Translations under genes and position numbers: made by a program | The notes under the pieces: generated by a model | The model's input: the letters and a program-made list of their open reading frames with translations, nothing else | Database searches by the model: none | What the model was told of the DNA's origin: nothing | Source: an uncultured Planctomycetales bacterium | Lineage (GTDB): Bacteria; Omnitrophota; Gorgyraeia; Gygaellales; Profunditerraquicolaceae | DNA length: 64,000 bases | Reading direction: 5' to 3' | NCBI GenBank assembly: GCA_964603585.1 | Contig: CAZRVK010000002.1 | Location: 115,513-179,512, forward strand | In this document: positions 26,213 through 59,803 of the stretch, piece by piece | Numbering within the stretch: the first letter of the stretch is position 1 | How the letters are laid out: the number at the start of each line of letters is the position of its first letter

Positions 26213-26307
26213 AGATGTTACGATAAAGGCAAACCCGGTGAAAACCGGGGGCGCAAAACTTATAGAGCCTAAAGCCGAAAGCGGCTATGGTAGTCAGGTG
26301 CCGAAAC
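26213..26307 (+). promoter_or_regulatory. Cyclic-di-GMP-I (GEMM) riboswitch aptamer
   Basis: Reads AAAGGCAAACC, then CCCGGUGAAAACCGGG (a P2 hairpin with a GAAA tetraloop), then GGCGCAAAAC (matching GACGCAAAGC), then AGCCUAAAGCC, then a GCCGAAAGCGGC hairpin. This order matches the GEMM-I consensus as I recall it from the V. cholerae Vc2 aptamer. Confidence 0.65.
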
Positions 26308-26325
26308 ATAAACAGATAAATATGA

Positions 26326-26363
26326 ACCCATAGGCACTTTAAGACTATGGGTTTTTTGTTTTA
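26326..26363 (+). terminator. Intrinsic terminator (riboswitch expression platform)
   Basis: ACCCATAG, an 11-nt loop, CTATGGGT, then TTTTTTGTTTT. It lies between the aptamer and the RBS/ATG at 26401. Confidence 0.65.
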
Positions 26364-26400
26364 TAAAAACATAGGAAACGGGAGAAAAAGGAGGTGGGAT

Positions 26401-26733
26401 ATGTTTACAAAGGTAACGGCTGTTATTATGATAATGTTGTTATGTTTTGCTGCGGGGGCATATGCCCAAGAGGAAGGTGAGCATAATGCTATCACCAAAC
26501 TCGGCCAGGGGGTAATCAACGGAACCACTTTTTGGCTGGAATTTCCCAAACAGATATATAACACCACAAAGGAAGACGATATCCTGGTCGGATTAACCTA
26601 TGGCTTGGTCAAGGGCGTAGCATACAGCGTATTGCGGCTGGCCTCGGGTGTATATGATATCACCACGATGCCTATTCCTCCCTATGACCGGGTATTGCTC
26701 GAACCAAAGTTTGTATTTGAAGGCTGGGAATAA
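26401..26733 (+). CDS. Small secreted protein (signal peptide), function unknown
   Basis: I placed the start at MFTKV because AAGGAGGTG sits 6 nt upstream. The longer ORF-track start lies inside the terminator hairpin. There is a signal peptide ending in AYAQ. Confidence 0.6.
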   Translation: MFTKVTAVIMIMLLCFAAGAYAQEEGEHNAITKLGQGVINGTTFWLEFPKQIYNTTKEDDILVGLTYGLVKGVAYSVLRLASGVYDITTMPIPPYDRVLLEPKFVFEGWE

Positions 26734-36766: not shown

Positions 36767-37351
36767 CTATTTCATAAGCGACAAGGCTTCGGCCCTGGTT
36801 TTCTCATTTTTCTGAAAAATACCCCTCACTGCCGAAGTCACCGTTAGAGTCCCGGGCTTTTTTACTCCGCGCATCGACATACACATATGTTCCGCTTCAA
36901 TAACCACCATACAACCCTGTGGTTTCAGCTTAGACATGATAATTTCTGCGATCTGCGTGGTCAATCTTTCCTGCACCTGCGGGCGCTTCGACAAAATATC
37001 TACAACCCGGACCAGCTTACTTAAACCGGTAACCCTGCCTTGTTTTGGGATATAGGCAATATGCGCCTTGCCGATAAAAGGGATCAAATGGTGCTCACAA
37101 ATGCTGTATAACGGGATCCCTTTTAACAGAACGATCTCTTCGTGTTTTTGATCCAGGATAACCTCTAACTCCTTTTTCGGGTCTTGCCTTATCCCGGAGA
37201 ATATCTCTTCATACATCTCTGATACCCGTCGAGGGGTATCTAAAAGATCCTGCCTCTGGGGATCTTCACCGATAGCTACTAAAATATCCCTGATCGCGCG
37301 TTCAATCTTCTTCTTGTCCATTACAAACCCTTTCTTCTTTATTTCCCACAA
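36767..37351 (-). CDS. folE: GTP cyclohydrolase I
   Basis: [18 protein letters not shown] active-site region. The true start may be the internal MDKKKIE at 37321. Confidence 0.9.
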
Positions 37352-37405
37352 AAACAGGCTTTCGCTAACTGCCTTATCAACATATTACCCCGAGGCTAAA
37401 GATTC

Positions 37406-38791
37406 TTATTTGCCAATACAAAAATCGTCAAAGATCTTATTTAAAAGTTCCGGAGAAAACCTTAAGCCCAAAATATCGTCCAAATACCCCAGGGCATCTT
37501 TAGTATCCTGGGCAATAAACTCAAGTGATAGTTTATTATCCAATGAATCCTGCGCTTCTGCAATAAGTTTTTGCGCATGCCTAAGGGCTGTAATATGCCG
37601 GCTGTTACTCATTATAACCGATTCAGGCGCAATAACCTCCCCCTTATAGATCAACCGCCAGATCGTATCCTCCAGCAAATGGATATTCTTAGACCTTTTA
37701 GCGGAAATCTCGATTAAGTGCGGGAATTTCTGCACAAGCACAGGTTTTTCGATCTTTTGCTTAAGGTCTATCTTATTGATAATGGCGATAACCGCGCGTT
37801 TTTTGAGTTTCTTGATCAGATACTTATCTTCCCTGGATAGCTTTCTACTGCCGTCAAATAATAAAAGTACCAGATCCGCTGAATCAATATGCCTTTTCGA
37901 GCGCAAAATTGCCTTTTTTTCCACTAAATCCCGTGGCTGTAAAATACCGGCAGTATCTATGATCTTAACGGGGATCCCCTTAATATCAACGACCTCTTCA
38001 ATGGTATCACGGGTAGTTCCGGAGATCGCAGTAACAATGGAACGCTCCTCCTTAAGAATGGCGTTCAGTAATGAGGATTTCCCAACATTTGCGCACCCAC
38101 AAATCACAACACTAATACCATCGCGCATCAATTTGCCTTGATGTGCCGTATCCAAAATACCATTTAAATACGCCGAGACCTCTTTTAATTTTACTTTTAA
38201 AGCCTCAAGTGAATTACGATCGATTTCTTCTTCCGGGAAATCTATATTAACCTCTAATACGGCTTGGATTTCCAATAATTTGTCTCTGACCTTATTTATC
38301 TGGCCGGACAAAACGCCATTTAACTGCTGCATGCCGATCTTTACAGCAGAATCGGTTTTTGCCTGGATGATATCCAGGACCGCTTCGGCTTGTGCCAAAT
38401 CTATCCTGCCATTTAGAAAAGCACGCCTGGTAAATTCCCCTGGCTGGGCCAAACGGGCACCATTTGCGATCACTATATCCAATATTGCGCCGATCATAAC
38501 ATTGCCTCCATGGCAATTGATTTCTGCGACATCTTCCTTAGTAAAAGAGCGCGGCGCGCGCATTATCGCCAGAATAACTTCATCAACAATCTTTGCCTTA
38601 CTATCAATGATCCAACCGTAATGCATGGTATAGGTCTTCGAATCAGACGGCTTTTTGCCTTTTTTAGGGATAAATATCTTATCCATGATAGAAAGCGCGT
38701 CTTTACCGCTTAAGCGCACGATCCCGATACCGGATTCTCCGGAAGGAGTAGCAATCGCCGCAATCGTATCATCCATATTTGCATAAATCAT
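37406..38791 (-). CDS. mnmE: tRNA uridine-5-carboxymethylaminomethyl modification GTPase MnmE
   Basis: 461 aa with G-domain GKSSLLNAIL/DTAG motifs and a C-terminal CIGK tetrapeptide. Confidence 0.9.
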   Translation of the reverse strand: MIYANMDDTIAAIATPSGESGIGIVRLSGKDALSIMDKIFIPKKGKKPSDSKTYTMHYGWIIDSKAKIVDEVILAIMRAPRSFTKEDVAEINCHGGNVMIGAILDIVIANGARLAQPGEFTRRAFLNGRIDLAQAEAVLDIIQAKTDSAVKIGMQQLNGVLSGQINKVRDKLLEIQAVLEVNIDFPEEEIDRNSLEALKVKLKEVSAYLNGILDTAHQGKLMRDGISVVICGCANVGKSSLLNAILKEERSIVTAISGTTRDTIEEVVDIKGIPVKIIDTAGILQPRDLVEKKAILRSKRHIDSADLVLLLFDGSRKLSREDKYLIKKLKKRAVIAIINKIDLKQKIEKPVLVQKFPHLIEISAKRSKNIHLLEDTIWRLIYKGEVIAPESVIMSNSRHITALRHAQKLIAEAQDSLDNKLSLEFIAQDTKDALGYLDDILGLRFSPELLNKIFDDFCIGK

Positions 38792-40161
38792 ATACGATCC
38801 CTGCCACCTGTCATAAAACCTTTACCGGAAAATACATCTCTTACCTCGGCAACCACAAATAAAGAACCGGTGGCCAGGATCATATCTTTCCGGCCGGCTT
38901 GGGTCATGGCCAAAGCGGCTGCTTCTTTAACTGCAGAGGTTATAATTATTCTTTTGCCTGAAAAATATCCCGCTAAAACCCCCGGATCAGTTGCCCGGGG
39001 AGTATTGGCCATGGTTAAAATCACAGTATCCGCCAAAGACTTCAATACAGAGCAGATCCCTTTTATATCCTTGTCCCTTGATATCCCCAAGATCAAAATC
39101 AAATGTTCATATTTAAAATTTTCTCTGATCGCTTTCTTTAGAGCCTGGGCAGAAGCAATATTTTGTGCGCCATCCAGGACAATTAAAGGCTCTCGGGAAA
39201 CTATTTCACACCGGCCGGGCCAAATGGTCCGGTGCACACCTCGCCAAACACTGCCGTTACTGATCTTGATCCCTTGCCTGCGTAAAGCCACAATCACGCC
39301 GATAGCGACACTGGCGTTAACTTCTTGATGGGCTCCAATAAGCGGGACCTTGAAATATGTGCGCCTCCTGGAAGCGCAAACATATCCAGGCAATAAATTT
39401 TGCCGGCCGGCCTTAAGGAGTGTGACTGCACACTCACGAGCGCGAAGGCTTATTTCCGCCATAGCCTCTTTTGCCTGGGGGGCAGTGACTACAATACAAG
39501 AATTACCATTTAATGAATAAGCCGGCCCCGGCTTTATGATCCCGGACTTTTCTTTTGCGATTGCGCTCAAAGTTTTTCCCAATTTATCGGTGTGCTCATA
39601 GCTTATAGGGGTAATAGCACATACCAATGGGTGGACTACATTCGTCGCATCCAAGCGTCCTCCCAAGCCGGTTTCTACAACTAAAAAATCGACTCTCTTC
39701 TTTTTAAAATAACTGAACGCCAATGCGGTATAAATCTCGAAGAAAGAAAGCGCCCCGTATGGTGAATCCTCATTGAACCTTTTAATCGCGGGCTTAAGCC
39801 TTGCTACAAATTTCTCCAGGGAATTCTTCGTAATCAAACCCTCAAAATCATCCTGGGCCTGGCATCGGCCAATCGGCCTTAAGATCCTGATCCGCTCCCT
39901 AAAATCCGATAAATGAGGAGAGGTATACAATCCGGTTGTATATCCGGCTTCTCTTAAAATATAAGCGATAAAGGCACAGGTTGAACCCTTGCCTTTTGAT
40001 CCGGCGATATGGATACAGCGTAAATAATCCTGGGGGTTTCCTATTGTCTGCAGAAAACTCCGAATACGTTTAAGGCCTATGGATTCCTTATATTTCCAAG
40101 AGGGGATATTCTCGTAATTAATAAAGGATTCCAGATATTTAACCGCATTCTGATAAGACAT
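38788..40161 (-). CDS. folC: Bifunctional folylpolyglutamate synthase/dihydrofolate synthase
   Basis: IHIAGSKGKGST P-loop typical of the Mur ligase/FolC family. It overlaps mnmE by 4 nt. Confidence 0.9.
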   Translation of the reverse strand: MSYQNAVKYLESFINYENIPSWKYKESIGLKRIRSFLQTIGNPQDYLRCIHIAGSKGKGSTCAFIAYILREAGYTTGLYTSPHLSDFRERIRILRPIGRCQAQDDFEGLITKNSLEKFVARLKPAIKRFNEDSPYGALSFFEIYTALAFSYFKKKRVDFLVVETGLGGRLDATNVVHPLVCAITPISYEHTDKLGKTLSAIAKEKSGIIKPGPAYSLNGNSCIVVTAPQAKEAMAEISLRARECAVTLLKAGRQNLLPGYVCASRRRTYFKVPLIGAHQEVNASVAIGVIVALRRQGIKISNGSVWRGVHRTIWPGRCEIVSREPLIVLDGAQNIASAQALKKAIRENFKYEHLILILGISRDKDIKGICSVLKSLADTVILTMANTPRATDPGVLAGYFSGKRIIITSAVKEAAALAMTQAGRKDMILATGSLFVVAEVRDVFSGKGFMTGGRDRI

Positions 40162-40188
40162 TACATGTATACCTAAGTCTTAGATATA

Positions 40189-41751
40189 TTAATGACGGAA
40201 ATGCCTGATACCGGTTAAGACCATAGCAATCTTATATTTATCTGCCATTTTAATGATCGCTTCATCGGCAATTGACCCCCCGGGCTGAATTATCGCTTTT
40301 ATCTTGTGTTTGGCAGCTACCTGGATGGCATCCTCTTTCGGGAAAAAGGCATCGGAGGCTAAAACCGAATTAGCGGCCATTGCGCCGGCTTTTTTAGTAG
40401 CGATGAAAACCGAATCCACCCGCGACATTTGTCCGGCCCCTATACCTACGGTTTTTCTTCCCTTGGCCAGGATGATCGCATTGGATTTTACATGTTTTCC
40501 CACCTTCCAGGCAAAGATCAAAGATTCTAATTCTTTCTTAGACGGCTTTTTCTTGGTTACTACTTTCAATTTGGACTCTTCCAGAGTAAGGATATCTTCT
40601 TCCTGAACCAACACCCCGCCTCCAACCCTTTTGAAATCTAGATAACGACTGGCGCAAAGCATCTCGGGGAATTCCAAAAGCCTTAGGTTTTTCTTTCCTT
40701 TCAACAAATCCAGTGCTTCCTGGCTAAAATCCGGGCAGATAATACACTCCAAAAACCCGCTTTTTACGATTAATTCAGCCAAATCCAAAGTAACTTTGCG
40801 GTTTATCGCTAAAATCCCTCCAAAAGCCGAAAGCCTATCCGAATTCCAGGCATCCAAATAAGCTTTCAGAAGATCGTCGTTTTCTGCGACGCCGCAAGGG
40901 TTATTATGTTTTACAAACACGACCGCTGGCAATTCGAATTCTTTTACGATATTTACCGCGGCATTTAAATCCAGGATATTATTAAAAGAAAGCTCTTTTC
41001 CCCAAAGCTGCTTGGCCAACGCTAACCCAGAGACCTGATAGCTGTCCCGATAAAAAGCCGCCTTCTGATGCGGATTCTCCCCATAACGTAGATCCTGGAC
41101 CTTTGCAAAATCAAGCCTCAATTCCGAAGGAAACCCATTCCCTCCTTCCGTATCCCGGGGGAGAAGATGTGACTTTAAATATTCATAGATCCGGCGGTCA
41201 TATTCTGCAGTAACCCTAAAAACCTCGATCCCCAGCTCCTGCAAAGTCACTTCGGACAAAGCCTGCTGTTTTTTAAGCTCTTCGATGATCTTCGGGTATT
41301 GGGTGGGACAACTTACCACTGCCACCGATTGATGGTTTTTAGCCGCAGAACGCAGCATGCTTGGGCCGCCGATATCGATATTCTCAATTGCCTCCCCAAT
41401 GGAAACATTAGGGTCCTGTATTACCTTATCAAAAGGATATAAATTCACTACTACCATATCGATCAAAGGGATATCATGGTATTTTAGCTGTTCCATGTGT
41501 TTCGGGTTATTTCTTAAAGCAAGCAGTCCGGCATGGATCTTAGGATGCAAGGTCTTTACCCGGCCGTCCAGCATCTCGGCAAACCCGGTATATTCGGAAA
41601 CTTCCTTGACCGGGATATTATTCTCTTTGAGCAATTTAGCGGTACCTCCGGTAGAAAGGATATCCACTCCCAAACTGATCAACTCCCGGGCAAATTCCAC
41701 AATACCGGTTTTATCCGATAAACTAACCAATGCGCGTTTGATCTTGAGCAT
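40189..41751 (-). CDS. purH: Bifunctional AICAR transformylase/IMP cyclohydrolase
   Basis: 520 aa with a KRALVSLSDKTGIVEFARELISLGVDILSTGGTAK MGS-like N-terminus. Confidence 0.95.
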   Translation of the reverse strand: MLKIKRALVSLSDKTGIVEFARELISLGVDILSTGGTAKLLKENNIPVKEVSEYTGFAEMLDGRVKTLHPKIHAGLLALRNNPKHMEQLKYHDIPLIDMVVVNLYPFDKVIQDPNVSIGEAIENIDIGGPSMLRSAAKNHQSVAVVSCPTQYPKIIEELKKQQALSEVTLQELGIEVFRVTAEYDRRIYEYLKSHLLPRDTEGGNGFPSELRLDFAKVQDLRYGENPHQKAAFYRDSYQVSGLALAKQLWGKELSFNNILDLNAAVNIVKEFELPAVVFVKHNNPCGVAENDDLLKAYLDAWNSDRLSAFGGILAINRKVTLDLAELIVKSGFLECIICPDFSQEALDLLKGKKNLRLLEFPEMLCASRYLDFKRVGGGVLVQEEDILTLEESKLKVVTKKKPSKKELESLIFAWKVGKHVKSNAIILAKGRKTVGIGAGQMSRVDSVFIATKKAGAMAANSVLASDAFFPKEDAIQVAAKHKIKAIIQPGGSIADEAIIKMADKYKIAMVLTGIRHFRH

Positions 41752-41793: not shown

Positions 41794-42498
41794 TTATTTA
41801 TTTACGCGGAAGGTAATAACATCCCCATCTTGGACTATATACTCCTTCATTTCCAGGCGCAGATGATTATTGTTGCGTGCACCGGAGAATCCTCCATCAT
41901 TCATGAGATCCTGAAAACTCACTACTTCTGCCCGGATAAAACCTTTTTGGATATCCGAATGTATCGCCCCCGAAGCCTCCCAGGCTGTAGAACCCTTTTT
42001 AATCGACCAGGCATGCGCATCTTTTTCTCCGGCAGTAAAGTAAGTTATATAGCCAAATGAATTATAAGCCGAAAATAATAACTTATCCTTATCTTGAGCC
42101 TCTTCTTCTTTAGCAAAATAGATCGGCTTGACCGTTAAAAGAGGGTATCCGGAAATCGCCTTTTTTTCTTCTTCATCCAGGGATAAATCAAAAAGCATTT
42201 TTTCTTTGTCCAGCTCCGACTTAAAGCGGGAAAGCAGCTTTTTCTCCGCCTCATCAGCTGAACGCTGCAACCTTAATTCTACAAATTCCAGATCCGTCAT
42301 GATTAACACTAACCTAGAACTTTCCAGAGCGATAATCCCGTCCGCCTCTTTAATTTTATCTTCTGCGGTAATAATATCAGCTTGTATATAGACCCGCTTT
42401 GCGGATTTAAACATCTCTTCCAGGGTCTTAATCCTGGCATCCATAATATTAGCCTTGCCCTGGGCGATACCTTCGATACCAAAAATCCCTATTTTCAC
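41794..42498 (-). CDS. YchF-related protein with degenerate P-loop (DUF933/TGS C-terminal domain)
   Basis: The C-terminus (HSDIQKGFIRAEVVSFQDL...YIVQDGDVITFRVN) matches the YchF TGS domain. It is only 234 aa, against ~363 aa for YchF. Its N-terminus GIFGIEGIAQGKAN replaces the canonical GLPNVGKST. Confidence 0.5.
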   Translation of the reverse strand: MKIGIFGIEGIAQGKANIMDARIKTLEEMFKSAKRVYIQADIITAEDKIKEADGIIALESSRLVLIMTDLEFVELRLQRSADEAEKKLLSRFKSELDKEKMLFDLSLDEEEKKAISGYPLLTVKPIYFAKEEEAQDKDKLLFSAYNSFGYITYFTAGEKDAHAWSIKKGSTAWEASGAIHSDIQKGFIRAEVVSFQDLMNDGGFSGARNNNHLRLEMKEYIVQDGDVITFRVNK

Positions 42499-42537: not shown

Positions 42538-44505
42538 CTAATGAACCGATTCCTGCTCTTCATGCTTACGCGAAGCTTGATACTGGCTAATGATACCGGA
42601 AGCTATTTTATGAGGGAGTTCCGCATAATGTGACAAACGCATAGTATACGCCCCACGGCCCGCGGTCAGAGAGCGCAAGTCATTAGCGTAAGTGAACATC
42701 TCGGACAAAGGAGCAGTAGCCTTTACCACCTGCGACTTGCCTTTTATATCCATTCCTACCAGATGTCCGCGGCGTGAATTAATATCCCCAGAAATCGCCC
42801 CCAGGCAATCTTCCGGGATCACTATCTCTACATTCATTACCGGCTCCAGCAAAACCGGCCCGGCTTCCAATACCGCCTTCTTTAATGCCATTGAACCGGC
42901 AATTTGAAAGGCCATATCTGAAGAATCGACATCATGGTATGAGCCATCAACCAGGGTCACCCGGATATCTTCTATCGGATAGCCCGCAACCGCTCCCTCC
43001 AAGCACGCCTGCCGGATACCTTTTTCCGCGGAAGGAATGAAATTCCTGGGAATAGCCCCGCCGACTATTTTATCCACAAACTCAAACCCGCTGCCCCGAG
43101 GCATTGGATCAATAGTAATCCAAACATCCCCATATTGGCCCCGGCCGCCGGATTGCCGTTTAAACTTCCCCTGGATCCTGACAGATTTTGTGATTGTTTC
43201 CTTATATGACACCTTGGGAGTACCTAACTCCACATCCACATTGAACCTTTTTTTGATCCGGCCGACCATAACATCCAAATGTAAATCCCCTAAACCGGAA
43301 ATGATCAACTCCTTGCTTACAGCATCGTGCATAACCTTAAAAGTAGGGTCTTCAGTCACCAATTTATGCAACGCAATGGAGATCTTATCCTCATCCTGCC
43401 GGGATTTGGGCTTTACCGAAGCAGAAATAGCTGGCTCGGGGAAAACGATCTCCTTAAAAAGCACTGGATTCTTCTCGTCACAAAGGGAATCCCCGGTAAA
43501 AGTGTCTTTCAATTTCGCAATCGCTACAATATCCCCGCAAGAGGCGCTTTCTAACACCCTTTGCTCCTTACCCTGCAAAAGATAGACCGGGCCTATCCTT
43601 TCCTTAATACGTTTATTTGCATTATAGAAACTGGTATTGGCAAGCAGTTTCCCGGAAAAAACACGTAAAATTGTCAATTGGCCGACATAAGGATCGGAGA
43701 TGCTTTTAAAAACAAAACCCGAGAAAGGAGCGGATTCCGTAAGTGCAACAGTAACCTTTTCCTGGAGTTTTTCCGGATCCACCGCCTCAATAGGCGCACG
43801 CTCCAGAGGAGTAGGAAAATATTGTACAATATCATCTAAAAGGTCAACAACCCCCTTATCCGTCAATGCAGAGCCATAAAGCACAGGGAATAATTTTCTT
43901 TTTATAACCGCCTGGCGTAAACCGTCTTTGATCTCATCCAGAGAAAGGCGCAAAACCTCAAGATACTTTACCAGAAGATTATCATCACTTTCGGCAATCG
44001 CCTCCATTAAATCTGAATCCTCCAGGGATTCAATGAACACACAATTCTTGGAAAAATTAGATTTGAGGCCGGATAATACCTGTTTTACCTCGACGCCTTC
44101 CTTATCAGTTTTATTTACAAAGAACATACACGGGATACCGGCTTCTTCTGCTATCTGCCAGGCGCGTTCCGTACCGACCTCAACTCCAGAAGCAGCATCC
44201 ACAATAATAACCGCACAATCTGCAGCGCGTATACTGGAAACCACCTCCCCGGAAAAATCGGCGTAACCTGGAGTATCCAGGATCTGGATCCTCACCCCTT
44301 TATGATCACAATAAAGCAAGCTGGTATTAATAGAACTCTTGCGTTCAATCTCGTCAAAACTATAATCGCTAACGGTGTTGCCCTCGACTACGTTTCCTTT
44401 GCGCGGTGAACTCTTGCACAGATAAAGCATACTTTCTGCAAGGCTGGTTTTACCGGATTGGGCGTGACCTAAAAGAATAAGGCTCCTTTTATTTTTGACA
44501 TCCAT
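42538..44505 (-). CDS. Elongation factor G family GTPase (divergent paralog)
   Basis: G1 motif GHAQSGKTS, NKTD, and EF-G domains II to V. Switch II reads DTPGYADF where canonical EF-G has DTPGHVDF. Confidence 0.8.
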   Translation of the reverse strand: MDVKNKRSLILLGHAQSGKTSLAESMLYLCKSSPRKGNVVEGNTVSDYSFDEIERKSSINTSLLYCDHKGVRIQILDTPGYADFSGEVVSSIRAADCAVIIVDAASGVEVGTERAWQIAEEAGIPCMFFVNKTDKEGVEVKQVLSGLKSNFSKNCVFIESLEDSDLMEAIAESDDNLLVKYLEVLRLSLDEIKDGLRQAVIKRKLFPVLYGSALTDKGVVDLLDDIVQYFPTPLERAPIEAVDPEKLQEKVTVALTESAPFSGFVFKSISDPYVGQLTILRVFSGKLLANTSFYNANKRIKERIGPVYLLQGKEQRVLESASCGDIVAIAKLKDTFTGDSLCDEKNPVLFKEIVFPEPAISASVKPKSRQDEDKISIALHKLVTEDPTFKVMHDAVSKELIISGLGDLHLDVMVGRIKKRFNVDVELGTPKVSYKETITKSVRIQGKFKRQSGGRGQYGDVWITIDPMPRGSGFEFVDKIVGGAIPRNFIPSAEKGIRQACLEGAVAGYPIEDIRVTLVDGSYHDVDSSDMAFQIAGSMALKKAVLEAGPVLLEPVMNVEIVIPEDCLGAISGDINSRRGHLVGMDIKGKSQVVKATAPLSEMFTYANDLRSLTAGRGAYTMRLSHYAELPHKIASGIISQYQASRKHEEQESVH

Positions 44506-44604: not shown

Positions 44605-44633
44605 ATTATATAATAGGTAAAGAGGAGGGTCAA
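44605..44633 (-). promoter_or_regulatory. Sigma-70-like promoter (TTGACC-17-TATAAT) upstream of the EF-G-like gene
   Basis: The reverse complement gives TTGACC (44628..44633), a 17-nt spacer, then TATAAT (44605..44610). AAGGAG sits 9 nt before the EF-G ATG. Confidence 0.45.
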
Positions 44634-44697: not shown

Positions 44698-45921
44698 TTA
44701 CTCCAAATAGGTGTAGATCTTTCCCTTATAGTTACGAAGGACGTATTTACCCTTAGCCTGTGAAAGGATATAGTTAGGTCCCACGGGGATCTTGCCTCCG
44801 CCTCCAGGGCCGTCTATGACATAAGTAGGTATGGCATACCCAGAGGTATGCCCGCGTAATTTTTCCATAATATTGATCCCAACGGCAACAGGAGTACGAA
44901 AATGCTGCGTTCCCCTCACGGGATCACACTGGTAAATATAATACGGCCTAACCCTAATCTGCAGCAACTCCTGCATCAGTTTTTTCATGATATACGGCCG
45001 GTCATTAATGCCTTTTAAAAGCACACTTTGGCTGCCTAAGGGGATACCGGACTCCGAAAGCATATCACAGGCGATCTTACAACGCTTAGAAATCTCTTTA
45101 GGGTGGTTAAAATGTATGCTCATCCAAATAGGCGAATATTTCTTAAGCATATTGACCAGTTTTTCCGTAATCCTCTGGGGCAGGGTAACCGGCACACGCG
45201 TGCCGATCCTGACAAATTCTACATGAGAGATCGCTCTGATCCTCATAACCAAACTTTCTATTTCCTCATCTTCCAAGGTAAGAGGATCTCCCCCGGAAAT
45301 CAGGACATCTCTAACCTTACGATTCTGCCGTATATACTCAATAGCAGCATCAAACCTTGTAGAAGCACCGCTTTTTTCTTCTTCATGGTCACCCACCAGC
45401 CTTCTTCTGGTACAATGCCGGCAATACATTGCGCAATGGTCGGTAGCTAAAAGTAAAACCCTGTCCGGATAACGATGCACCAGATGCGCCGCAGGAGAAT
45501 CCCGATCCTCTGCGCAAGGATCCGTCATTTCATGAGGAGCAACTACCAATTCCTCCGCAGAAGGAACCGCTTGCCTGCGGATAGGACAAGCCGGGTCTTC
45601 CGGATCCATAAGCGCCGCCCAGTAGGGAGTGATCGCCATGGCAAGCCTGCCTTTAGCCTTATCGATACCCTTCTCTTCTTCCGGGGTCAACTTAATGATC
45701 TGGGTCAACTCCTCTTTACTGTGAATACGATGCTTTAACTGCCAGTGCCAATCCTCCCAATCCAGGGGATTCACATCTTTATAAATACCGATCTGCTGAT
45801 AATCTCGAGGCCTCTTACCAATACGCGCGGGGGCAGCAACTTCTAATTGCAATTTGGGATTTTCAACCGTAATCACATTATTAGTGGGATTGCTCAAGTT
45901 ACTCCTTTCGCTTAAAAGCAC
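44698..45921 (-). CDS. kamA: Lysine 2,3-aminomutase (KamA-type radical SAM/PLP enzyme)
   Basis: Nearly colinear with my recollection of clostridial KamA: ITPYWAALMDPEDP, HRYPDRVLLLATDHCAMYCRHCTRRR (CxxxCxxC), RPYYIYQCD, GHTSGYAIPTYVIDGPGGGGK. Confidence 0.9.
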   Translation of the reverse strand: MLLSERSNLSNPTNNVITVENPKLQLEVAAPARIGKRPRDYQQIGIYKDVNPLDWEDWHWQLKHRIHSKEELTQIIKLTPEEEKGIDKAKGRLAMAITPYWAALMDPEDPACPIRRQAVPSAEELVVAPHEMTDPCAEDRDSPAAHLVHRYPDRVLLLATDHCAMYCRHCTRRRLVGDHEEEKSGASTRFDAAIEYIRQNRKVRDVLISGGDPLTLEDEEIESLVMRIRAISHVEFVRIGTRVPVTLPQRITEKLVNMLKKYSPIWMSIHFNHPKEISKRCKIACDMLSESGIPLGSQSVLLKGINDRPYIMKKLMQELLQIRVRPYYIYQCDPVRGTQHFRTPVAVGINIMEKLRGHTSGYAIPTYVIDGPGGGGKIPVGPNYILSQAKGKYVLRNYKGKIYTYLE

Positions 45922-46894
45922 TCGTTAATATCGCCTCAATAAGATCCTCGTATTTCATTCCGGAGGCATAAGCCATAACCGGAAAATTCGATTCCTTTGG
46001 ATCAAGACCAGGTAACGGGTTTATCTCCAAGACATAGGGGATATTATCTTTACTCAAACGGATATCCGTCCGGGAAATATCCAAACACCCTACAGAATGA
46101 TGAGTCTTAAGCGCTACCTCTTTAACCCGCCTTTCGGTTTCTTTATCTAACCTGGCCGGGCAATGGAACGTAGGGGTTAACCCTAATTCGCGGTTACCCT
46201 GGTATTCCTTCATCTTCCAGGAATAAAAAAATTCTTCTTGGTTAGAGCAGGTAGAAAAGTCGATTTCCAGGATAGGCAGGATCGTGGTTTTGCCGTTTTC
46301 CAGGATCCCTACCGTAAGCTCCTTGCCCTCAATGAACTCCTCAACCAATGCCTCCTGATGATAATTGTGGATCAACTCCTTGACTTTCTTATAAAGCCCG
46401 GAGCTATCTCTGACCACATTAGATGAATTGATCCCTTTGGCAGAACCTTCGCAATTGGGTTTGACTATCAGCGGAAACTTTAATTCGGCAAGCAACTTCT
46501 CGTTCCCGGTCTCAAAAACCTGGAAATTGGGAGTGGGGATATTCTCTGCTAAAAGTATCTTCTTGGTTAAAGCCTTGTTCAAGGCCAAAGCCAGAGAAAA
46601 AGTATTTGAACCGGTATAAGGCACATCCAAATAATCCAATATCGCAGGGATCTCTGATTCACGGAACTTCCCAGACTTTCCTTCTGCGATATTAAAAACC
46701 ATATCTACGGTGTTTTTGCGAAAATAGGAAAACAGGTTCGGGTATTCGGCCTCCACAAGCTCAACGCTGTGCCCTTTTTTATTTAAAGCAGAGGCGATCG
46801 CATTTATGGTTTCTTCGGAATCGAATTCCGAGAAATAATCCTCCGGCTTTGTCAGATCTTTTTTCTTCAGGTTATAGGTTAAGGCGATTTTCAT
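45899..46894 (-). CDS. ATP-grasp ligase, D-alanine--D-alanine ligase family (short form)
   Basis: 331 aa with Ddl-like N-domain and ATP-grasp motifs (LDVPYTGS, EEFIEGKELTVGIL, VLEINPLPGL). It overlaps kamA by 23 nt. Confidence 0.7.
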   Translation of the reverse strand: MKIALTYNLKKKDLTKPEDYFSEFDSEETINAIASALNKKGHSVELVEAEYPNLFSYFRKNTVDMVFNIAEGKSGKFRESEIPAILDYLDVPYTGSNTFSLALALNKALTKKILLAENIPTPNFQVFETGNEKLLAELKFPLIVKPNCEGSAKGINSSNVVRDSSGLYKKVKELIHNYHQEALVEEFIEGKELTVGILENGKTTILPILEIDFSTCSNQEEFFYSWKMKEYQGNRELGLTPTFHCPARLDKETERRVKEVALKTHHSVGCLDISRTDIRLSKDNIPYVLEINPLPGLDPKESNFPVMAYASGMKYEDLIEAILTSAFKRKE

Positions 46895-46916
46895 CGCGAT
46901 TTTGACGCTCTCCGTG

Positions 46917-47906
46917 TTAATTCAGATTATTTCTTTCCAGGGCCGCCTTTAATATCCTGCCAATGATCTCATTATAAGAGATCCCTATCTGTTTGGCAAC
47001 CACCTCAAAAACATCTTCTGTCGATAGAGACGGCAAAGGATTGATCTCCAGGACATAGGCATTACCTTCATTATCCACCCGGAAATCAACCCGACCAAAA
47101 TCACAGCATTCAACAGCATTATAGGTGCGCAGCGCAAGCTCGGAAATTTTCTTCGCCAAGTCTGCTCCAATTCGCGCCGGACAAATATATTCCAGGCGGT
47201 CAGAAGTAATCCTGGAAAAGGTATAAAATTTATCGTTCAATTTGAGCTTGCCGTCGATTTTAATCTGAACGATCGGCATCACCTCCGGACGGTCATTCCC
47301 GATCAAGGCTACGGTAAACTCCTGCCCGGAGATAAACTGTTCTACAAGCGCCGGCTGTTTATAAATACTAATAATGCGTTCTGCCTGGGTTTTGAGCTCT
47401 TCCATGTTTTCTACCCGGGAATCTTCCGATAATCCCTTGGAGGAACCTTCAAAACGTGGCTTTACGATCATGGGGAATACCAGATGATCTGTATTTACTA
47501 AAGACTCCGGGCTTTTTATTTCAAAGAATTTTGGCGTAGGGATGCCTTCCGCGATAAAAATCTTTTTCGCCATCAACTTATCCAGGGTTAAAGCCAAAGT
47601 CAAGGCATCTGCCCCGACAAAAGGAATACCTGACATCTCTAAAAGCATCGGGACTTGGGATTCCCGGTTACGCCCGGTAAGCCCTTCGGATATATTAAAA
47701 ACGATGTCTACATCCAGCCTCCCGATAGTTTCGATTAGATTTAGGACATTGCCGATCTTCTTGACCTTGTATCCTTGTGAGGCAATCGCCTGTGCAATAA
47801 CATCTATTGTGGAAGGATGGTCGAATTCCGCGTTTGCATCCGGCGGGTCTCCCTCCTTGAACTTGTAATCGGTCTTCAAATCATAGGTTAAGCCAACTGT
47901 TTTCAT
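46917..47906 (-). CDS. ATP-grasp ligase, D-alanine--D-alanine ligase family (short form), paralog of 45899..46894
   Basis: 329 aa with the same architecture (SGIPFVGA, EQFISGQEFTVALI, VLEINPLPSL). Confidence 0.7.
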   Translation of the reverse strand: MKTVGLTYDLKTDYKFKEGDPPDANAEFDHPSTIDVIAQAIASQGYKVKKIGNVLNLIETIGRLDVDIVFNISEGLTGRNRESQVPMLLEMSGIPFVGADALTLALTLDKLMAKKIFIAEGIPTPKFFEIKSPESLVNTDHLVFPMIVKPRFEGSSKGLSEDSRVENMEELKTQAERIISIYKQPALVEQFISGQEFTVALIGNDRPEVMPIVQIKIDGKLKLNDKFYTFSRITSDRLEYICPARIGADLAKKISELALRTYNAVECCDFGRVDFRVDNEGNAYVLEINPLPSLSTEDVFEVVAKQIGISYNEIIGRILKAALERNNLN

Positions 47907-47921
47907 TATTATATAATCCCC

Positions 47922-47957
47922 AAAAAAAATAAGGGCAGGAAGAACTCAACCGCCCTT
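47922..47957 (-). terminator. Hairpin + U-run (intrinsic terminator / leader attenuator) immediately upstream of the ATP-grasp–KamA operon
   Basis: The minus strand reads AAGGGC, a 15-nt loop, GCCCTT, then AUUUUUUUU. It lies 16 nt upstream of the ATG at 47906 and downstream of a candidate promoter at 48040..48068. Confidence 0.5.
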
Positions 47958-48039
47958 AACACTCCTTTAGTTTTTACAATTGATCTCTAAGCCCTCGAAA
48001 TATATTTTTATCTGCCGAACATCTTGTATTTATATTATT

Positions 48040-48068
48040 TTTTACCACAACCTGCTGGGTTTGTCAAG
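48040..48068 (-). promoter_or_regulatory. Candidate sigma-70 promoter (TTGACA-17-TAAAAA) on the minus strand
   Basis: The reverse complement reads TTGACA, the 17-nt spacer aacccagcaggttgtgg, then TAAAAA(AT). Confidence 0.35.
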
Positions 48069-51937: not shown

Positions 51938-52785
51938 TGCCTTTTATCTAAAAAAGCCTTGCGCACATAATGATTGGTTAGGAATAAATACCCCATACGG
52001 GGAAGATCATACAATAACCCCGGGAAGAACTTCTTACCGTAATGTCTCGCGCCTTCGTTTTTGGCTATCATATAATAACGGTTTCGCCAGCAGAGATACT
52101 GCCGGAAGAGCTTATCAAAACCGCTGCTGCCGCCGCTATGGCAGCATTTTGCCGCCGGATAAAAAACCGCCTTCCATCCCGCAATCTGCGCGCGCCAGGA
52201 CAGATCCACATCTTCTACCATAAAGAAAAATCTCTCGTCGAAATAACCATTTTCGTCTTTGATCTCAAGCAGCATCTTACGCCGGTAAAAACCGGCACAA
52301 GAGCAAAGGCCAAAAATATTTGTGATCCTGCCGTACCTGACATCATCCTTCTTATTGCTGGCGATATTAAAAAACCTGCGAAACTTGCTAAGATATATGC
52401 CGCAAGAAAACAGGGTCTTCTCATCGGGATTCAATATCTTAGGCTGAACCATTCCCACAGGATATTTCATCTCCTTGATAAAACCAAGTGCTGAATCAAT
52501 AAACCCATCGCAAAGCCTGACATCGCAATCCAGGGTTAATATCCATTCTCCGCTTGAGGCATCAATCCCCTGGTTCCTTGCCCGGGAAGCGCCAAGATTA
52601 TTCTTATTCTCGATCACTTTAACCCGGGGATATTGCCTTTTGACAAAATCTACCGTCCCGTCGTCTGATCCGTTATCTACAAGAATAACCTCGATCTGGG
52701 CGCTTTTAATCTGCGAAAACAAGGAATCCAGACATGCATCGGCTGCGGAAAGGTTGTTAAAGGTCAAAATTACTACTGAAAGCAT
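51919..52785 (-). CDS. Glycosyltransferase family 2
   Basis: MLSVVILTFNNLSAADACLDSL...VDNGSDDGT and a DxD motif (LDCD). Confidence 0.85.
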   Translation of the reverse strand: MLSVVILTFNNLSAADACLDSLFSQIKSAQIEVILVDNGSDDGTVDFVKRQYPRVKVIENKNNLGASRARNQGIDASSGEWILTLDCDVRLCDGFIDSALGFIKEMKYPVGMVQPKILNPDEKTLFSCGIYLSKFRRFFNIASNKKDDVRYGRITNIFGLCSCAGFYRRKMLLEIKDENGYFDERFFFMVEDVDLSWRAQIAGWKAVFYPAAKCCHSGGSSGFDKLFRQYLCWRNRYYMIAKNEGARHYGKKFFPGLLYDLPRMGYLFLTNHYVRKAFLDKRQCIKNN

Positions 52786-54109
52786 TCTTTATCCCCTCTA
52801 AATCTTTTATGGTTAAATCATCATTGTAGGCTTTGGGTTTCGAGTTCCCATCATAATCCTGCCATTCGCAAGGGAGCTGTTCTTTTTTGGCTCTCAAATA
52901 ATTAAAATATTGCGTCCCCGGGAAAGGCGTGGCAAAAGAGAATTGCACGGAATCAGGATGCACGTCTTTTATATAACCTACAGTCGCCTTTAACGTGTCC
53001 TTGTTTTCTCCCGGCAGTCCAAGGCAAAATGTCAGGTGCACCTTTACTCCGGACCTTTTAGTGGCCTTAATCATGGAGGTAGCTTTATCCAAATCCAGAT
53101 TTTTCCGGCAGAGGCTTAAAATCCCTTTATCCGCGGATTCGATCCCGTATTTGATCGCATAAAGTCCGGCCTCGGACATATTATCCAGCAATTCTTCATC
53201 CATAAGATCTGCTCTTGCCATTACCGCCCAGGGGACTTTGATCCCTCTATTCTTTATTTGAGCGCAAATATCCAGAACATGCCTGCGGTCAACATTAAAG
53301 ACATCATCATCAAAATATACCGCCTTAAAATCGAATTTATTTAAAAGATACTCCATCTCATCTACGACATCTACCGGGTTTCTTTTTCTATAGCCTTTAT
53401 TCCGGTAAATTACTTGTGGCCAAAGACAAAAACTGCAGCAAAAAGGGCACCCCCGGCTGCTCCACATCTGCACGTTGGGAACAGCTAACCCGGCAAAACC
53501 ATCATTGTAATTGTAAATCGGCACATCCAACCTTTCCGGCCAGGGTAAAGCATCTATCTCGATATCCAAAGACGGCTCATTGATAATTATTCCCGAGGCA
53601 GAACGTAACCCCAATCCCCCGACATTTTTAGGATCGCATCCTCGCTCTAAACAAGTTACCAGTTCTACTAACGCCATTTCATACTCCGCGATAAGCACGT
53701 AATCAATAAAATCGTATTCATCCAGGATCTGACGGGCAAAAGTACTGGCATGAGTCCCGCAAAGAGCAATTTGTACAGAAGGTGCTTTACGGAGAATCTT
53801 ACGGACCAGACTAAGATCATTCTTAAAAGAGGGGGTCGAAACTTCCACTACCGCCAGCGCAGGATCAAAATCGGCTATTTTACGAATACACTCCTCTTCG
53901 GAGATCCTTTCTGCAATGGCATCGATCAATTTCGCTTCTTTTCCCCGGCTTTTCATGAACGCTGCGGCATAAGCAAGAAAAAAAGGAAAAGGGATATAAT
54001 GGAGTTTTCCGTCTGCCTCCGGCAGAGCGGTAAAAGGCCAGCGGGAACCCGACCTTACCCCCAGCCTATTATCCTCAAACCAAGGCAGGTTAACTAAAAC
54101 TGTACGCAT
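52757..54109 (-). CDS. B12-binding domain radical SAM protein
   Basis: An N-terminal cobalamin-binding-like domain. GCPFCCSFC fits CxxxCxxC, and a PGENKDT-type region follows. Confidence 0.8.
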   Translation of the reverse strand: MRTVLVNLPWFEDNRLGVRSGSRWPFTALPEADGKLHYIPFPFFLAYAAAFMKSRGKEAKLIDAIAERISEEECIRKIADFDPALAVVEVSTPSFKNDLSLVRKILRKAPSVQIALCGTHASTFARQILDEYDFIDYVLIAEYEMALVELVTCLERGCDPKNVGGLGLRSASGIIINEPSLDIEIDALPWPERLDVPIYNYNDGFAGLAVPNVQMWSSRGCPFCCSFCLWPQVIYRNKGYRKRNPVDVVDEMEYLLNKFDFKAVYFDDDVFNVDRRHVLDICAQIKNRGIKVPWAVMARADLMDEELLDNMSEAGLYAIKYGIESADKGILSLCRKNLDLDKATSMIKATKRSGVKVHLTFCLGLPGENKDTLKATVGYIKDVHPDSVQFSFATPFPGTQYFNYLRAKKEQLPCEWQDYDGNSKPKAYNDDLTIKDLEGIKNAFSSNFDL

Positions 54110-54110
54110 A

Positions 54111-54920
54111 TTATTTATTCAGGTTAAGGTGTTGCTCGATCTGTTCAAAGAATATCTTGATCTTAGAGATGTTCTGGTTCACATCTTTGGAATCACAATT
54201 GATGCACTCCGTGACACTGCGCAGGAGATCTAAGTTTTTAAGCAATATGGCACATTGCTCCTGAATGGCTTTTTGCAGATTATCTTGAGCAACCATAAAA
54301 GATTTGTTGAGAGCCTCCCGGGTTTGGTTAAGATCCCAGTCTATTTTATCCAGGCTGGTCCTTAAAGTAGATACCCCTTCCCTGGCATCATATTGGGACT
54401 GGCTTAAAAGGTCTTTGAGCTCTTCCAACATTTGAAGGGCATCCCCATTCAGCTCGGTTAAGACATTGTTTAATGTTACCATCCCGGCCTTAACATCCAG
54501 ATCAAACCGGCCGATACTATCATTAATACCTTTGAGCGCACGATTGGTATCCAAACTGCCCCTGATCAATCCTTCATTCAAAGACTCTAACATCCTCTCC
54601 GCCTGCGCAAAGAATACCACCAGTCGCGTATCCATATCAGTTAATCTTTGGTTTAGATATTTCGAGATCAACTGCACCTCAAACTTAAGGTCAAAAAGCA
54701 TTTGGCCAAGGTCGGCAAATACACGAATAAGCGCCGATAACAAAATACCGGCTAATATTACTGCCAGAGGTATCAATGGCGGCTTAGACTTATCGGGCAT
54801 GGAAACGAACAAATAAACACCTAAGCATACGCCGAATATAGAGATAAGCCAGGAAAACACCAAAAGAACTAATACCGAAGGCAATTTTTTAATCTTCATT
54901 TGGACGCTCCTTTTGGGCAA
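54111..54920 (-). CDS. Membrane-anchored coiled-coil protein
   Basis: Two N-terminal TM helices followed by ~200 aa of coiled coil. A Wzz-like role is my speculation. Confidence 0.35.
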   Translation of the reverse strand: MPKRSVQMKIKKLPSVLVLLVFSWLISIFGVCLGVYLFVSMPDKSKPPLIPLAVILAGILLSALIRVFADLGQMLFDLKFEVQLISKYLNQRLTDMDTRLVVFFAQAERMLESLNEGLIRGSLDTNRALKGINDSIGRFDLDVKAGMVTLNNVLTELNGDALQMLEELKDLLSQSQYDAREGVSTLRTSLDKIDWDLNQTREALNKSFMVAQDNLQKAIQEQCAILLKNLDLLRSVTECINCDSKDVNQNISKIKIFFEQIEQHLNLNK

Positions 54921-56215
54921 AATACATTTCTGCTCTTTTCCTGGGACATCTCCAGCATAGGGATAATCCCGGGGAATCTATCGATCAAATTCTGTAACCA
55001 CAGGTCAATATTATCTGCAACACTCAAGAAATGGCTTTTAATATAAGCATGTTTTTTTGTCAGGAATCCGCTCCAATCCGGATGGCGTTCAACCAGAATG
55101 ATCAGCTTCTCCAGCAACTTGCTATCGCTAACCGCATATACACAGGTCAATAAATCCCGGTAAAGTTCCCGTTGAAAATCGATATTCTTAAACCTGTCTT
55201 TTATTCCTTTGGCGGTAACAAGGATCATGGCTAAAATACTTTGCGCAAACTCCTGACGGGGATAGAGAAAGGTGGGGATATTATCCCAGGCTAATGCATA
55301 CTGATAAAAAAAAGCCAGATCCAATAAGGCCAGCCAGGAAGATAATAAGTGGTCCGAAGCGCGGCCCAATTCATCTTTTCCCTGAAAGATCAAAAGTTCA
55401 AGGTCTTTCAGACAATGGTGAAAAACCAGCAGGAAATCAAGATAAATAAGCTCTACCCGCGCGCAAACCAAATCCTCCTCTAAATAACGGTTGGCCAATC
55501 CGACATTATCCTTCATTTTAAAAGCAAAGCTTTCTGGAGCGGAATAATACTCTTTTTCCTGATAATATCTAACGTGCCATCTCCAATATGTGTTTAAAAG
55601 CGAGGCCAGATCATCTTTTTTCAGATGATGGCATACAGCCTGTGGCTGATACGATAAACCATATCCTAAACTGCTAAGCCTGCGGCTTAAATCAACGTCC
55701 TCATAATTATTTTTAAGCTGCTCATTATAAAAACCGACCAGGCTAAGCGCCTTTTTGCTGAATACCGTGTTTGAGCCAAAAAGAAATTCCGGCGGGCGCA
55801 AGGGATCATCCCAATACTGCCGCATATGCACAGAACGCCAAAGGTCAAATACCGAAGAAATATTGTCTTCAACCAATTTCCCCCCGGCTCCGGCGATATT
55901 CGGATTATCGAATCCTCGCATTAAAGACGACAGCCATGTGCTTTCCGGGATGCAATCAGCGTCTAAAGCAGCGATGTATTCGCTCTCGATGGACTTTATC
56001 GCGGTATTTCTGGCGCAGGCTAATCCCAGATTATACTGGTGTCTTAATAATCTTACCGGATACCTCCCGGCAATTTGACCGGTGCCATCGCTTGATCCAT
56101 CATCGACGACTACTATCTCCTCCACCGGATAATCCTGCTTAAGGACAGCCTCCAGGCAACAGGCAATCGTAGAAGCGGCATTAAAACAAGGGATATAGAT
56201 ACTGGTCTTCTTCAT
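54896..56215 (-). CDS. Glycosyltransferase family 2 with C-terminal helical extension
   Basis: IYIPCFNAASTIACCLEAVLKQDYPVEEIVVVDDGSSDGT and a DxD motif (LDADC). Confidence 0.8.
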   Translation of the reverse strand: MKKTSIYIPCFNAASTIACCLEAVLKQDYPVEEIVVVDDGSSDGTGQIAGRYPVRLLRHQYNLGLACARNTAIKSIESEYIAALDADCIPESTWLSSLMRGFDNPNIAGAGGKLVEDNISSVFDLWRSVHMRQYWDDPLRPPEFLFGSNTVFSKKALSLVGFYNEQLKNNYEDVDLSRRLSSLGYGLSYQPQAVCHHLKKDDLASLLNTYWRWHVRYYQEKEYYSAPESFAFKMKDNVGLANRYLEEDLVCARVELIYLDFLLVFHHCLKDLELLIFQGKDELGRASDHLLSSWLALLDLAFFYQYALAWDNIPTFLYPRQEFAQSILAMILVTAKGIKDRFKNIDFQRELYRDLLTCVYAVSDSKLLEKLIILVERHPDWSGFLTKKHAYIKSHFLSVADNIDLWLQNLIDRFPGIIPMLEMSQEKSRNVFCPKGASK

Positions 56216-57396
56216 TTTCTCATGCTTCTTATTTTTGCTCGTAAGGTGGCTTTAGCTGATCTGATCTCCTCGGATAAACCCGGACGCAAGCCGGGCTTTA
56301 AATTTCGGCGCTTAAGTATAATAAGCCGTGCCTTACGCAGGAGTTTTCCCGCCAGATATTTTGTATTTTGATATGCCTGAAAATACTTTTTCTCATAAAA
56401 AGCGCGTTTTTTGAGTTTTTTTACCTTTGCCAAAACAGGCTGCTTTACAGACGGCTTGCCGAAATTATGATCGTAACAGCTCATCATGCATCCCTGGCAT
56501 CCATGTTTTATGATCCGCTGGCGAATACGGTTATGGCGGTACGAATCCCAGATATCAGATAATTTCTTACTCCGGACATTACCGATAATATATTTCGATA
56601 ATACCCAGCAGGGATACACATTGCCTTCGGCAGATATCGGACAAGAACTCCACAACGCCGGACAATGGTCAAAAACCCGTTCTTTCTTTGCCTGCCGGGA
56701 TAAATACGCGGGGATATTGCAAAGATACCCTTCGGGGTTAGTATGGATCCCGTACTCCCGGGCAAGCCTGACAGTCTCTTTGATATTCTTATTCACATCT
56801 TCGAGTAAATTATCAGGAAAGAGAAAATTATCCTTACGATGCTTATCCAGGAGGAAAATCTCGCTAAAAGGCTGGAATTTCACCGTAGTCACCCCATATT
56901 TATGCGCCAAATCCATCACATAAGGCAATGAGGCATAATTCAAAGCGCTGATCGTCGTTGCAATGGTGCTTTCGATCTTGTATTCTCTTAGGTGCTTTAA
57001 TGCCTCGACCGCTTTATGAAAATTACCTTTACCTCTTAAAGAATCATGGACATCCTCATTTCCCTCAATGGAGATATTTACCACCCCCATCCCGGCTAAA
57101 GCAAGCTTCCTGGCAACATCCTTATCAAGCAAAGTCCCGTTTGACGTAAGGCAGGTATTGATTTTATGATGACTGACTAAACTAACCAGATCAAAAATAT
57201 CCTCTCGAAGTAACGGCTCTCCTCCGCTAAAAACTATGCTCTCCGGGCAAAGCAAAGAAGCGTCGTTAATCAATCCGCGCAGCTCGTGGGAGCTCAATTC
57301 CTTATTGCCTGCCGTATCGGGGATCTGGCACATCGCACATCTTAAGTTGCATCGATGAGTTACAGAAACAATAATTTCTTTAAGACGATTTGCCAT
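56212..57396 (-). CDS. Radical SAM/SPASM domain protein
   Basis: VTHRCNLRCAMC (CxxxCxxC) and a C-terminal Cys-rich SPASM region (CPALWSSCP...YPCW...CQGCMMSC). Confidence 0.8.
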   Translation of the reverse strand: MANRLKEIIVSVTHRCNLRCAMCQIPDTAGNKELSSHELRGLINDASLLCPESIVFSGGEPLLREDIFDLVSLVSHHKINTCLTSNGTLLDKDVARKLALAGMGVVNISIEGNEDVHDSLRGKGNFHKAVEALKHLREYKIESTIATTISALNYASLPYVMDLAHKYGVTTVKFQPFSEIFLLDKHRKDNFLFPDNLLEDVNKNIKETVRLAREYGIHTNPEGYLCNIPAYLSRQAKKERVFDHCPALWSSCPISAEGNVYPCWVLSKYIIGNVRSKKLSDIWDSYRHNRIRQRIIKHGCQGCMMSCYDHNFGKPSVKQPVLAKVKKLKKRAFYEKKYFQAYQNTKYLAGKLLRKARLIILKRRNLKPGLRPGLSEEIRSAKATLRAKIRSMRK

Positions 57397-58553: not shown

Positions 58554-58566
58554 TTATCATGTCCTT

Positions 58567-59790: not shown

Positions 59791-59803
59791 TAACCGCTCC
59801 GGA

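Follow-up and report, generated by a model that had tools for sequence, protein, structure and literature searches.

A conserved Omnitrophota operon couples a predicted short-form lysine 2,3-aminomutase with Ddl-derived ATP-grasp ligases and probably makes a beta-lysine amide

We analyzed a 64,000-nucleotide stretch of DNA from an uncultured bacterium placed by GTDB in the Omnitrophota (contig CAZRVK010000002.1, positions 115,513 to 179,512; hereafter the window, numbered from its first letter), concentrating on three tightly packed minus-strand genes and the conserved leader that precedes them. The first gene encodes AG1 (46917..47906, 329 aa), a predicted Ddl-derived ATP-grasp amide ligase; the second encodes AG2 (45899..46894, 331 aa), an ATP-grasp ligase paralogous to AG1; and the third encodes KamA (44698..45921, 407 aa as listed), a predicted short-form lysine 2,3-aminomutase. 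The leader, approximately 80 nt long (47922..48003, minus strand), lies directly 5' of AG1. An earlier annotation made from the letters alone (the original prediction) had described the order ATP-grasp, ATP-grasp, KamA in tight packing, and the open reading frames (ORFs) were found at exactly the coordinates it gave. AG1 and AG2 are separated by 22 nt, and KamA overlaps AG2 by 23 nt when read from its listed GTG start. An alternative TTG start (45897..45895), which lies 1 nt past the AG2 stop codon with AAGGAG 5 nt upstream and gives a protein of 399 aa, appears more likely to be the true start than the GTG.

KamA matched the Pfam Radical_SAM and LAM_C domains and passed the NCBIfam KamA-family model TIGR00238 (357 bits; cutoff, 199). 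It scored 522.7 bits against the AblA equivalog TIGR03820 (cutoff, 525.4), with the match stopping at model position 360 of 417, and remained below the cutoff of the EpmB model (254 versus 369). When aligned to the C. subterminale lysine 2,3-aminomutase 2A5H (E 1.4e-144), it was found to retain the radical-SAM CxxxCxxC motif, R134, D293, D330, and K337. In lysine 2,3-aminomutase, Arg134 binds the carboxylate and Lys337 binds pyridoxal phosphate (PLP), and the lysine epsilon-ammonium group is bound by Asp293 and Asp330, which are replaced in glutamate 2,3-aminomutase. The zinc site of the clostridial enzyme (Cys268 and Cys375/377/380) and its C-terminal domain are missing: KamA has Arg at Cys268, ends at the position of 2A5H residue 367, and is devoid of the roughly 50 C-terminal residues that carry the zinc cysteines. 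Six other ligase-linked KamA proteins keep the same residues and show the same loss, their AblA-model matches stopping near position 361 of 417; an exception to Asp293 is the fused protein P0205, which has Gln at this position. Because the catalytic and specificity residues are kept, the C-terminal end is missing, and the EpmB score is below its cutoff, KamA is predicted to be a lysine-type 2,3-aminomutase in a distinct short form without the zinc site, and not an EpmB. Glutamate or arginine 2,3-aminomutase was also considered and ruled out by D293 and D330 and by lower model scores. The original prediction had called KamA a lysine 2,3-aminomutase, which the presence of D293, D330, and K337 bears out, and had raised the alternative of a short EpmB working with EpmA and efp; the EpmB score speaks against that alternative, and neither epmA nor efp was found among the scanned window ORFs.

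AG1 and AG2 both matched Pfam Dala_Dala_lig_C (E 3.5e-38 and 8.1e-36, respectively) and share 37% identity, in agreement with the earlier description of two paralogous Ddl-family ATP-grasp proteins beside KamA; the structure predicted for AG1 has a pLDDT (predicted local distance difference test) of 96.1. They are only 25 to 30% identical to Ddl/VanA enzymes (EC 6.3.2.4) and fall under all curated Ddl cutoffs, scoring 187.5 (AG1) and 193.4 bits (AG2) against a cutoff of 243 in the best NCBIfam Ddl model, NF002378, and being far under the cutoffs of the remaining NCBIfam Ddl/Van models. Residues are numbered after E. coli DdlB, whose sequence was checked by residue numbering only. The ATP-grasp fold of the Ddl type is present, as are the Mg/ATP and transition-state residues R255, D257, E270, and N272, and the AG family as a whole keeps equivalents of Glu15, Ser150, Arg255, Asp257, Glu270, and Asn272. 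It differs from Ddl/VanA by an invariant Glu in place of His63, found in AG1 and AG2 as well, by an invariant GRNRE motif, and by Arg at the Met259 position; invariant arginines that are new to the ligases are R81 and R276. AG1 has, in addition, no equivalent of the omega-loop residues Lys215/Tyr216 and carries Asp at Ser281, whereas AG2 retains the K215 and S281 equivalents. Both proteins look catalytically competent, with a remodeled amino-acid pocket. Since every NCBIfam Ddl model is under its cutoff and the substrate residues are changed, neither ligase is a canonical Ddl on sequence criteria. AG1 orthologs carry the label "D-alanine-D-alanine ligase" in JGI and older NCBI records.

A scan of GTDB species representatives, with gene content determined by tblastn, yielded 80 species-level loci that are labeled either Omnitrophota or, evidently wrongly, "Planctomycetales"; the named homologs were from Candidatus Omnitrophota metagenome-assembled genomes (MAGs) without exception. 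The order AG1-AG2-KamA was found in 67 of these loci and AG1-KamA without AG2 in 5, the other 8 being cut at contig ends, so that none of the 72 informative loci departs from the arrangement, which is far beyond chance. This is the conserved synteny of kamA with two Ddl-like genes that the original prediction had proposed to look for in public genomes. Median identities to the window proteins were 80% for KamA, 75% for both AG1 and AG2, 70% for a downstream EF-G paralog, 64% for purH, and 46% for a YchF-like protein. Because the ligases exceed EF-G and purH in the same loci, they are under unusually strong constraint.

Representatives clustered at 50% identity were searched exhaustively, which gave 1,150 AG relatives at E<1e-30. 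The best 150 of these comprise 100 single ligases, 8 fragments, 39 AG::AG fusions, 2 KamA::AG fusions (P0226 and P0264), and 1 AG::KamA fusion (P0205, confirmed by Pfam and NCBIfam), and a continuous KamA::AG ORF of 728 aa is present at locus L149. In a metagenome scan seeded with the family consensus, a sample of 80 diverse loci had KamA in the flank in 43 cases; where 1.5 kb or more of sequence flanked the ligase gene or genes on each side, KamA was present in 24 loci and not found in 10. The link between ligase and KamA was also seen in one Elusimicrobiota MAG and one "Proteobacteria" MAG, and every named member of the AG family belongs to an uncultured group (Omnitrophota, Elusimicrobiota, NPL-UPA2, and "Proteobacteria" or "Firmicutes" MAGs).

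The cassettes were sorted by gene order. Type A, that of the Omnitrophota, is AG1-AG2-KamA-(EF-G)-YchF-like-purH-folC; type A' is AG-(AG)-KamA-pabB-pabC-purH-folC; and type A'' is AG-KamA-rpsU-DJ-1-purH-folC. Type B (KamA-AG-AG'-GNAT) was found in 13 loci of other lineages, 3 of them with an HDAC-domain protein next in line, and type C (AG-AG-Peptidase_S58) in 6 loci and in a fused form, with no KamA. Type D has the order AG-histidine kinase-sigma54 regulator-KamA-AG, and type E is KamA-AG. The only recurrent additional partners in type B cassettes were the GNAT, the HDAC-domain protein (3 loci), and a small DUF5752-like ORF (4 loci), with no conserved exporter among them, and the neighboring ORFs u190, u178, and u77 had no Pfam match. 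A peptidase of the S58 family (DmpA/BapA type) follows the ligase pair, or a fused 724-aa double ligase, without KamA at L084 (8001..11432), L134, L147, L148, L153, L155, and L161; ligase pair and peptidase may be a synthesis/hydrolysis pair for a peptide.

Synteny is obligate within the Omnitrophota, the association recurs in other phyla, and the fusions occur in both orders; taken together, this is strong genomic evidence that the ligases work with the aminomutase. The view of the trio as a functional unit, already put forward in the original prediction, is strengthened accordingly by AG::KamA and KamA::AG proteins.

The region upstream of AG1 has regulatory features of its own. A promoter-like site was read from the sequence at 48039..48067 (minus strand), consisting of TTGACA (48067..48062), a 17-nt spacer, and a TGgTAAAAA extended -10-like box. 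A consensus scanner gave no call for this site; a box similar to the -10-like box, "TGTGATAAAAAAT", is found at the equivalent place in most related loci, and we infer a promoter here. The leader contains a GAGGG/GGAGG box (47996..47992), a TTG codon (47979..47977) that in the window forms a TTG-TAA start-stop, an A-run, and a terminator-like hairpin, AAGGGCGG...CTGCCCTT (47957..47931), followed by eight T residues (47929..47922). Its end lies 15 nt from the AG1 ATG, a distance of 10 to 20 nt in many loci. The same elements recur across loci, with the TTG 12 to 15 nt past the GGAGG box, then the A-run and a hairpin, AAGGGCUC...GAGCCCUU, with a U-run, and similar hairpins stand 5' of the ligase gene in deeper relatives. 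A covariance model of the leader, R1, matched 47924..48003 at 53.5 bits and found one copy per related locus (L002 to L081), always just 5' of AG1 and including loci on which it was not trained; it gave no match elsewhere in 0.99 Mb.

RNAalifold on 35 leaders showed compensatory changes in four of the five hairpin pairs and recovered the terminator hairpin only, with no aptamer-like structure, and the single-sequence fold of the leader was not significant (z -0.47). Rfam gave no leader match, either in the whole window at gathering thresholds or for the leader at E<=10, where only noise appeared. By the Rfam result, the leader is not a known riboswitch, and the RNAalifold result does not support a classical one. 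The mini-ORF beginning at the TTG varies in form, encoding MEKIG* in approximately 17 loci and running for 21 to 22 codons in 7 loci, where it ends in an ATGA on the AG1 start codon. Neither its frame nor its length is conserved, as a conserved leader peptide would have them. These features suggest that the leader is probably a transcription attenuator, and it may be a ribosome-mediated one. In seven loci (L002, L009, L017, L030, L036, L039, and L048), found among some Omnitrophota only, a short palindromic insert resembling a miniature inverted-repeat transposable element (…CATAACTTATG…CATAAGTTATG…) lies between the leader terminator and AG1.

We propose, with a probability of roughly 0.68, that a beta-lysine-derived amide is made by a single operon comprising the leader, AG1, AG2, and KamA. 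KamA, as a radical-SAM/PLP enzyme without the zinc site, would convert L-lysine to beta-lysine, judging from its conserved catalytic and specificity residues. AG1, together with AG2 where it is present, would then form an acyl phosphate from a carboxylate at the expense of ATP and couple it to an amine, as expected from the established mechanism of the family and the retained Arg/Asp/Glu/Asn catalytic set. Beta-lysine would be one of the ligase substrates because of the obligate synteny and the fusion proteins, and AG1 and AG2 are probably a heterodimer because AG::AG fusions are many. The change of His63 to Glu, the Asp at Ser281 in AG1, and the new R81 and R276 would fit substrates with an extra ammonium or carboxylate group. 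We consider di- or tripeptides or isopeptides containing a beta-lysyl group the most likely products; an example would be beta-Lys on an amine of Lys or of another beta-Lys, much as PylC acts after PylB. That no exporter is conserved next to the genes, and that relatives add a GNAT and deacetylase or an S58 peptidase, suggests that the product is an intracellular small molecule; an osmolyte-like or polyamine-like role for it is speculation. The beta-lysyl dipeptides, oligomers, or D-Ala-beta-Lys of the original prediction, and its compatible-solute role, are likewise candidates only. The terminator hairpin before the AG1 start codon would attenuate transcription of the operon.

The best mechanistic analogue of this arrangement is PylB-PylC, with which it shares a common logic, a radical-SAM lysine rearrangement followed by ATP-grasp ligation to an amine. 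In pyrrolysine biosynthesis, PylC acts after the radical-SAM mutase PylB and forms an isopeptide on the lysine N-epsilon. A PylC-type ligase in the company of pylB, pylD, pylS, and pylT is not what this operon contains. ATP-grasp formation of small dipeptides is likewise known from Ngg/AsnO, which makes N-acetylglutaminylglutamine amide, and from the L-amino-acid ligases BacD/YwfE and BL00235; Ngg has a GNAT partner, and its product is an intracellular solute or metabolite. The AblA-AblB system of methanogens, which makes the osmolyte N-epsilon-acetyl-beta-lysine, has a LAM (lysine 2,3-aminomutase)-type enzyme in common with our operon, and type B cassettes also carry a GNAT. It differs in that the Omnitrophota operon has two ATP-grasp ligases in place of a GNAT and a short KamA without the zinc site. 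The original prediction had drawn a sharp contrast with this pathway. The contrast holds for the operon itself, since no GNAT was found there or in the 80 Omnitrophota loci, but the KamA-AG-AG'-GNAT cassettes of the other lineages make it less absolute than it had been put. A literature search for KamA or beta-lysine with ATP-grasp or Ddl found no paper on such a pathway, in keeping with the earlier statement that KamA plus tandem Ddl-like ligases matches no named one; the kinds of enzyme are known, and their combination is new.

Downstream, the minus-strand order, read from a family 2 glycosyltransferase (GT2) gene through the leader, AG1, AG2, and KamA, continues with the EF-G paralog, the YchF-like gene, purH, folC, mnmE, and folE. 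The EF-G paralog (42538..44505, minus strand, 655 aa) is shorter than typical EF-G and has a promoter-like site of its own (44633..44605); approximately every second Omnitrophota locus has it after KamA, and the others lack it. The YchF-like protein (41794..42498, minus strand, 234 aa) has a degenerate P-loop, GIEGIAQGKAN, and an intact YchF C-terminal (DUF933) domain, and 46 Omnitrophota loci keep its gene between KamA/EF-G and purH. The folate-related block purH-folC-mnmE-folE (36767..41751, minus strand) lies downstream of the operon. In deeper relatives (L086, L087, L101, L116, and L141), the linkage AG-KamA...purH-folC is kept with different inserts, either rpsU/DJ-1 or pabB/pabC.

Several observations weigh against the beta-lysine amide pathway. 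The neighborhood just described is itself conserved and hints at other roles. KamA is not found near the genes of some AG members (L169, L170, and the AG-AG-S58 loci), a few of which lack it within 7 kb, and because of these members, the AG family as a whole is not restricted to beta-lysine. The K215 and S281 equivalents of AG2 leave room for a D-Ala-like second substrate, and which substrate occupies which site cannot be read from the sequence. A canonical Ddl was sought in 2.19 Mb (the window and related loci), where only AG-family genes were found.

This last point bears on the alternative that survives best, which we nevertheless consider unlikely: AG1 and/or AG2 would be D-Ala-D-Ala (or D-Ala-D-X) ligases of cell wall synthesis, with KamA merely co-located or providing the beta-lysine of an atypical stem peptide or cross-bridge. 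Both ligases resemble Ddl in fold and in catalytic residues, AG2 retains the E15, S150, K215, R255, and S281 equivalents, the organism has peptidoglycan genes, including one for a YkuD/LysM L,D-transpeptidase (16969..17793), and universal presence with high conservation would suit an essential function. K01921 and alanine racemase have been reported in 176 of 176 complete Omnitrophota genomes (preprint, bioRxiv 10.64898/2026.06.07.730766), but these K01921 calls could be AG1 or AG2 themselves, both of which are under every curated Ddl cutoff. The family-wide change of His63 to Glu and the loss of the K215/Y216 and S281 equivalents from AG1 also argue against this alternative. Moreover, the AG genes never adjoin murein genes. 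No mur, dcw, or ddl gene was found among the scanned ORFs of the 64-kb window or in 171 related loci (approximately 2.2 Mb). The partners of the ligases are instead always KamA, GNAT, or S58, with KamA sometimes fused to them, and AG2 is gone from five Omnitrophota loci.

In another alternative, which we regard as quite improbable, the ligase would put beta-lysine on a translation protein, as an ATP-grasp analogue of EpmA/EF-P or RimK/S6. A KamA paralog is known to serve in the beta-lysylation of EF-P by EpmA and EpmB, which has in common with the function proposed here a KamA-family aminomutase and an ATP-dependent attachment of beta-lysine, there to the epsilon-amine of a lysine. The unusual conservation of the ligases and the translation-related genes downstream (the EF-G paralog and the YchF-like gene here, rpsU in relatives) would also be consistent with it. 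However, EpmA is a LysRS paralog and not an ATP-grasp enzyme, the KamA of the window is LAM-type and fails the EpmB model, the ligase fold is of the small-molecule type, and no efp or epmA is nearby. Tailoring of a cofactor has very little probability. In this reading, a folate or pterin would receive beta-lysine on its glutamyl tail or on a different carboxylate, much as methanopterin and F420 are capped by the ATP-grasp enzymes MptN and CofF. The operon does stand upstream of purH-folC-mnmE-folE, and deeper relatives retain the linkage to purH-folC with other genes in between, but the shared order may be inheritance within one lineage, folate genes are absent from cassette types B, C, D, and E, and no pterin-binding feature was identified.

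The window also holds features apart from the operon. A cyclic di-GMP-I riboswitch (26218..26305, plus strand, 77.5 bits) was found upstream of a 128-aa ORF (26347..26733) with a hydrophobic N-terminus and no Pfam match. Five radical-SAM genes stand in a run at 52757..63231 (minus strand), one with a B12-binding domain and two with SPASM domains, one SPASM protein being 787 aa long with two radical-SAM stretches. The run is interleaved with a GT2 glycosyltransferase gene and two ORFs for which Pfam gave no confident match, and it lies upstream of GT2, MsbA-like ABC, and Wzy_C genes; the cluster may serve to modify a glycan or lipid.

In bacteria and archaea, beta-lysine is known to serve as an osmolyte when acetylated, to modify EF-P, and to be built into antibiotics; to our knowledge, no dedicated ATP-grasp route to beta-lysine amides has been described. 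The operon is core and strongly constrained across a whole candidate phylum, whose members are ultra-small and depend on hosts, and it is met again in further uncultured lineages. A much wider proposal, which we offer tentatively and think doubtful as a whole, is that of a pathway widespread in uncultured phyla and universal in Omnitrophota, in which a short zinc-less KamA physically coupled to heterodimeric Ddl-derived ligases would make beta-lysyl (iso)peptides as essential polyamine-like or osmoprotective cations under a ribosome-dependent leader/attenuator, and S58 beta-aminopeptidases would have a natural beta-peptide substrate. If the beta-lysine amide pathway is real, its product would be a new class of beta-amino-acid metabolite, and natural substrates for beta-aminopeptidases could follow. 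A function would be assigned to hundreds of genes that at present bear the annotation "D-alanine--D-alanine ligase," and claims of an intact or complete D-Ala-D-Ala supply in Omnitrophota that are based on KEGG Orthology (KO) assignments may rest on the wrong genes. The operon-specific leader is, in addition, a candidate for a new cis-regulator.

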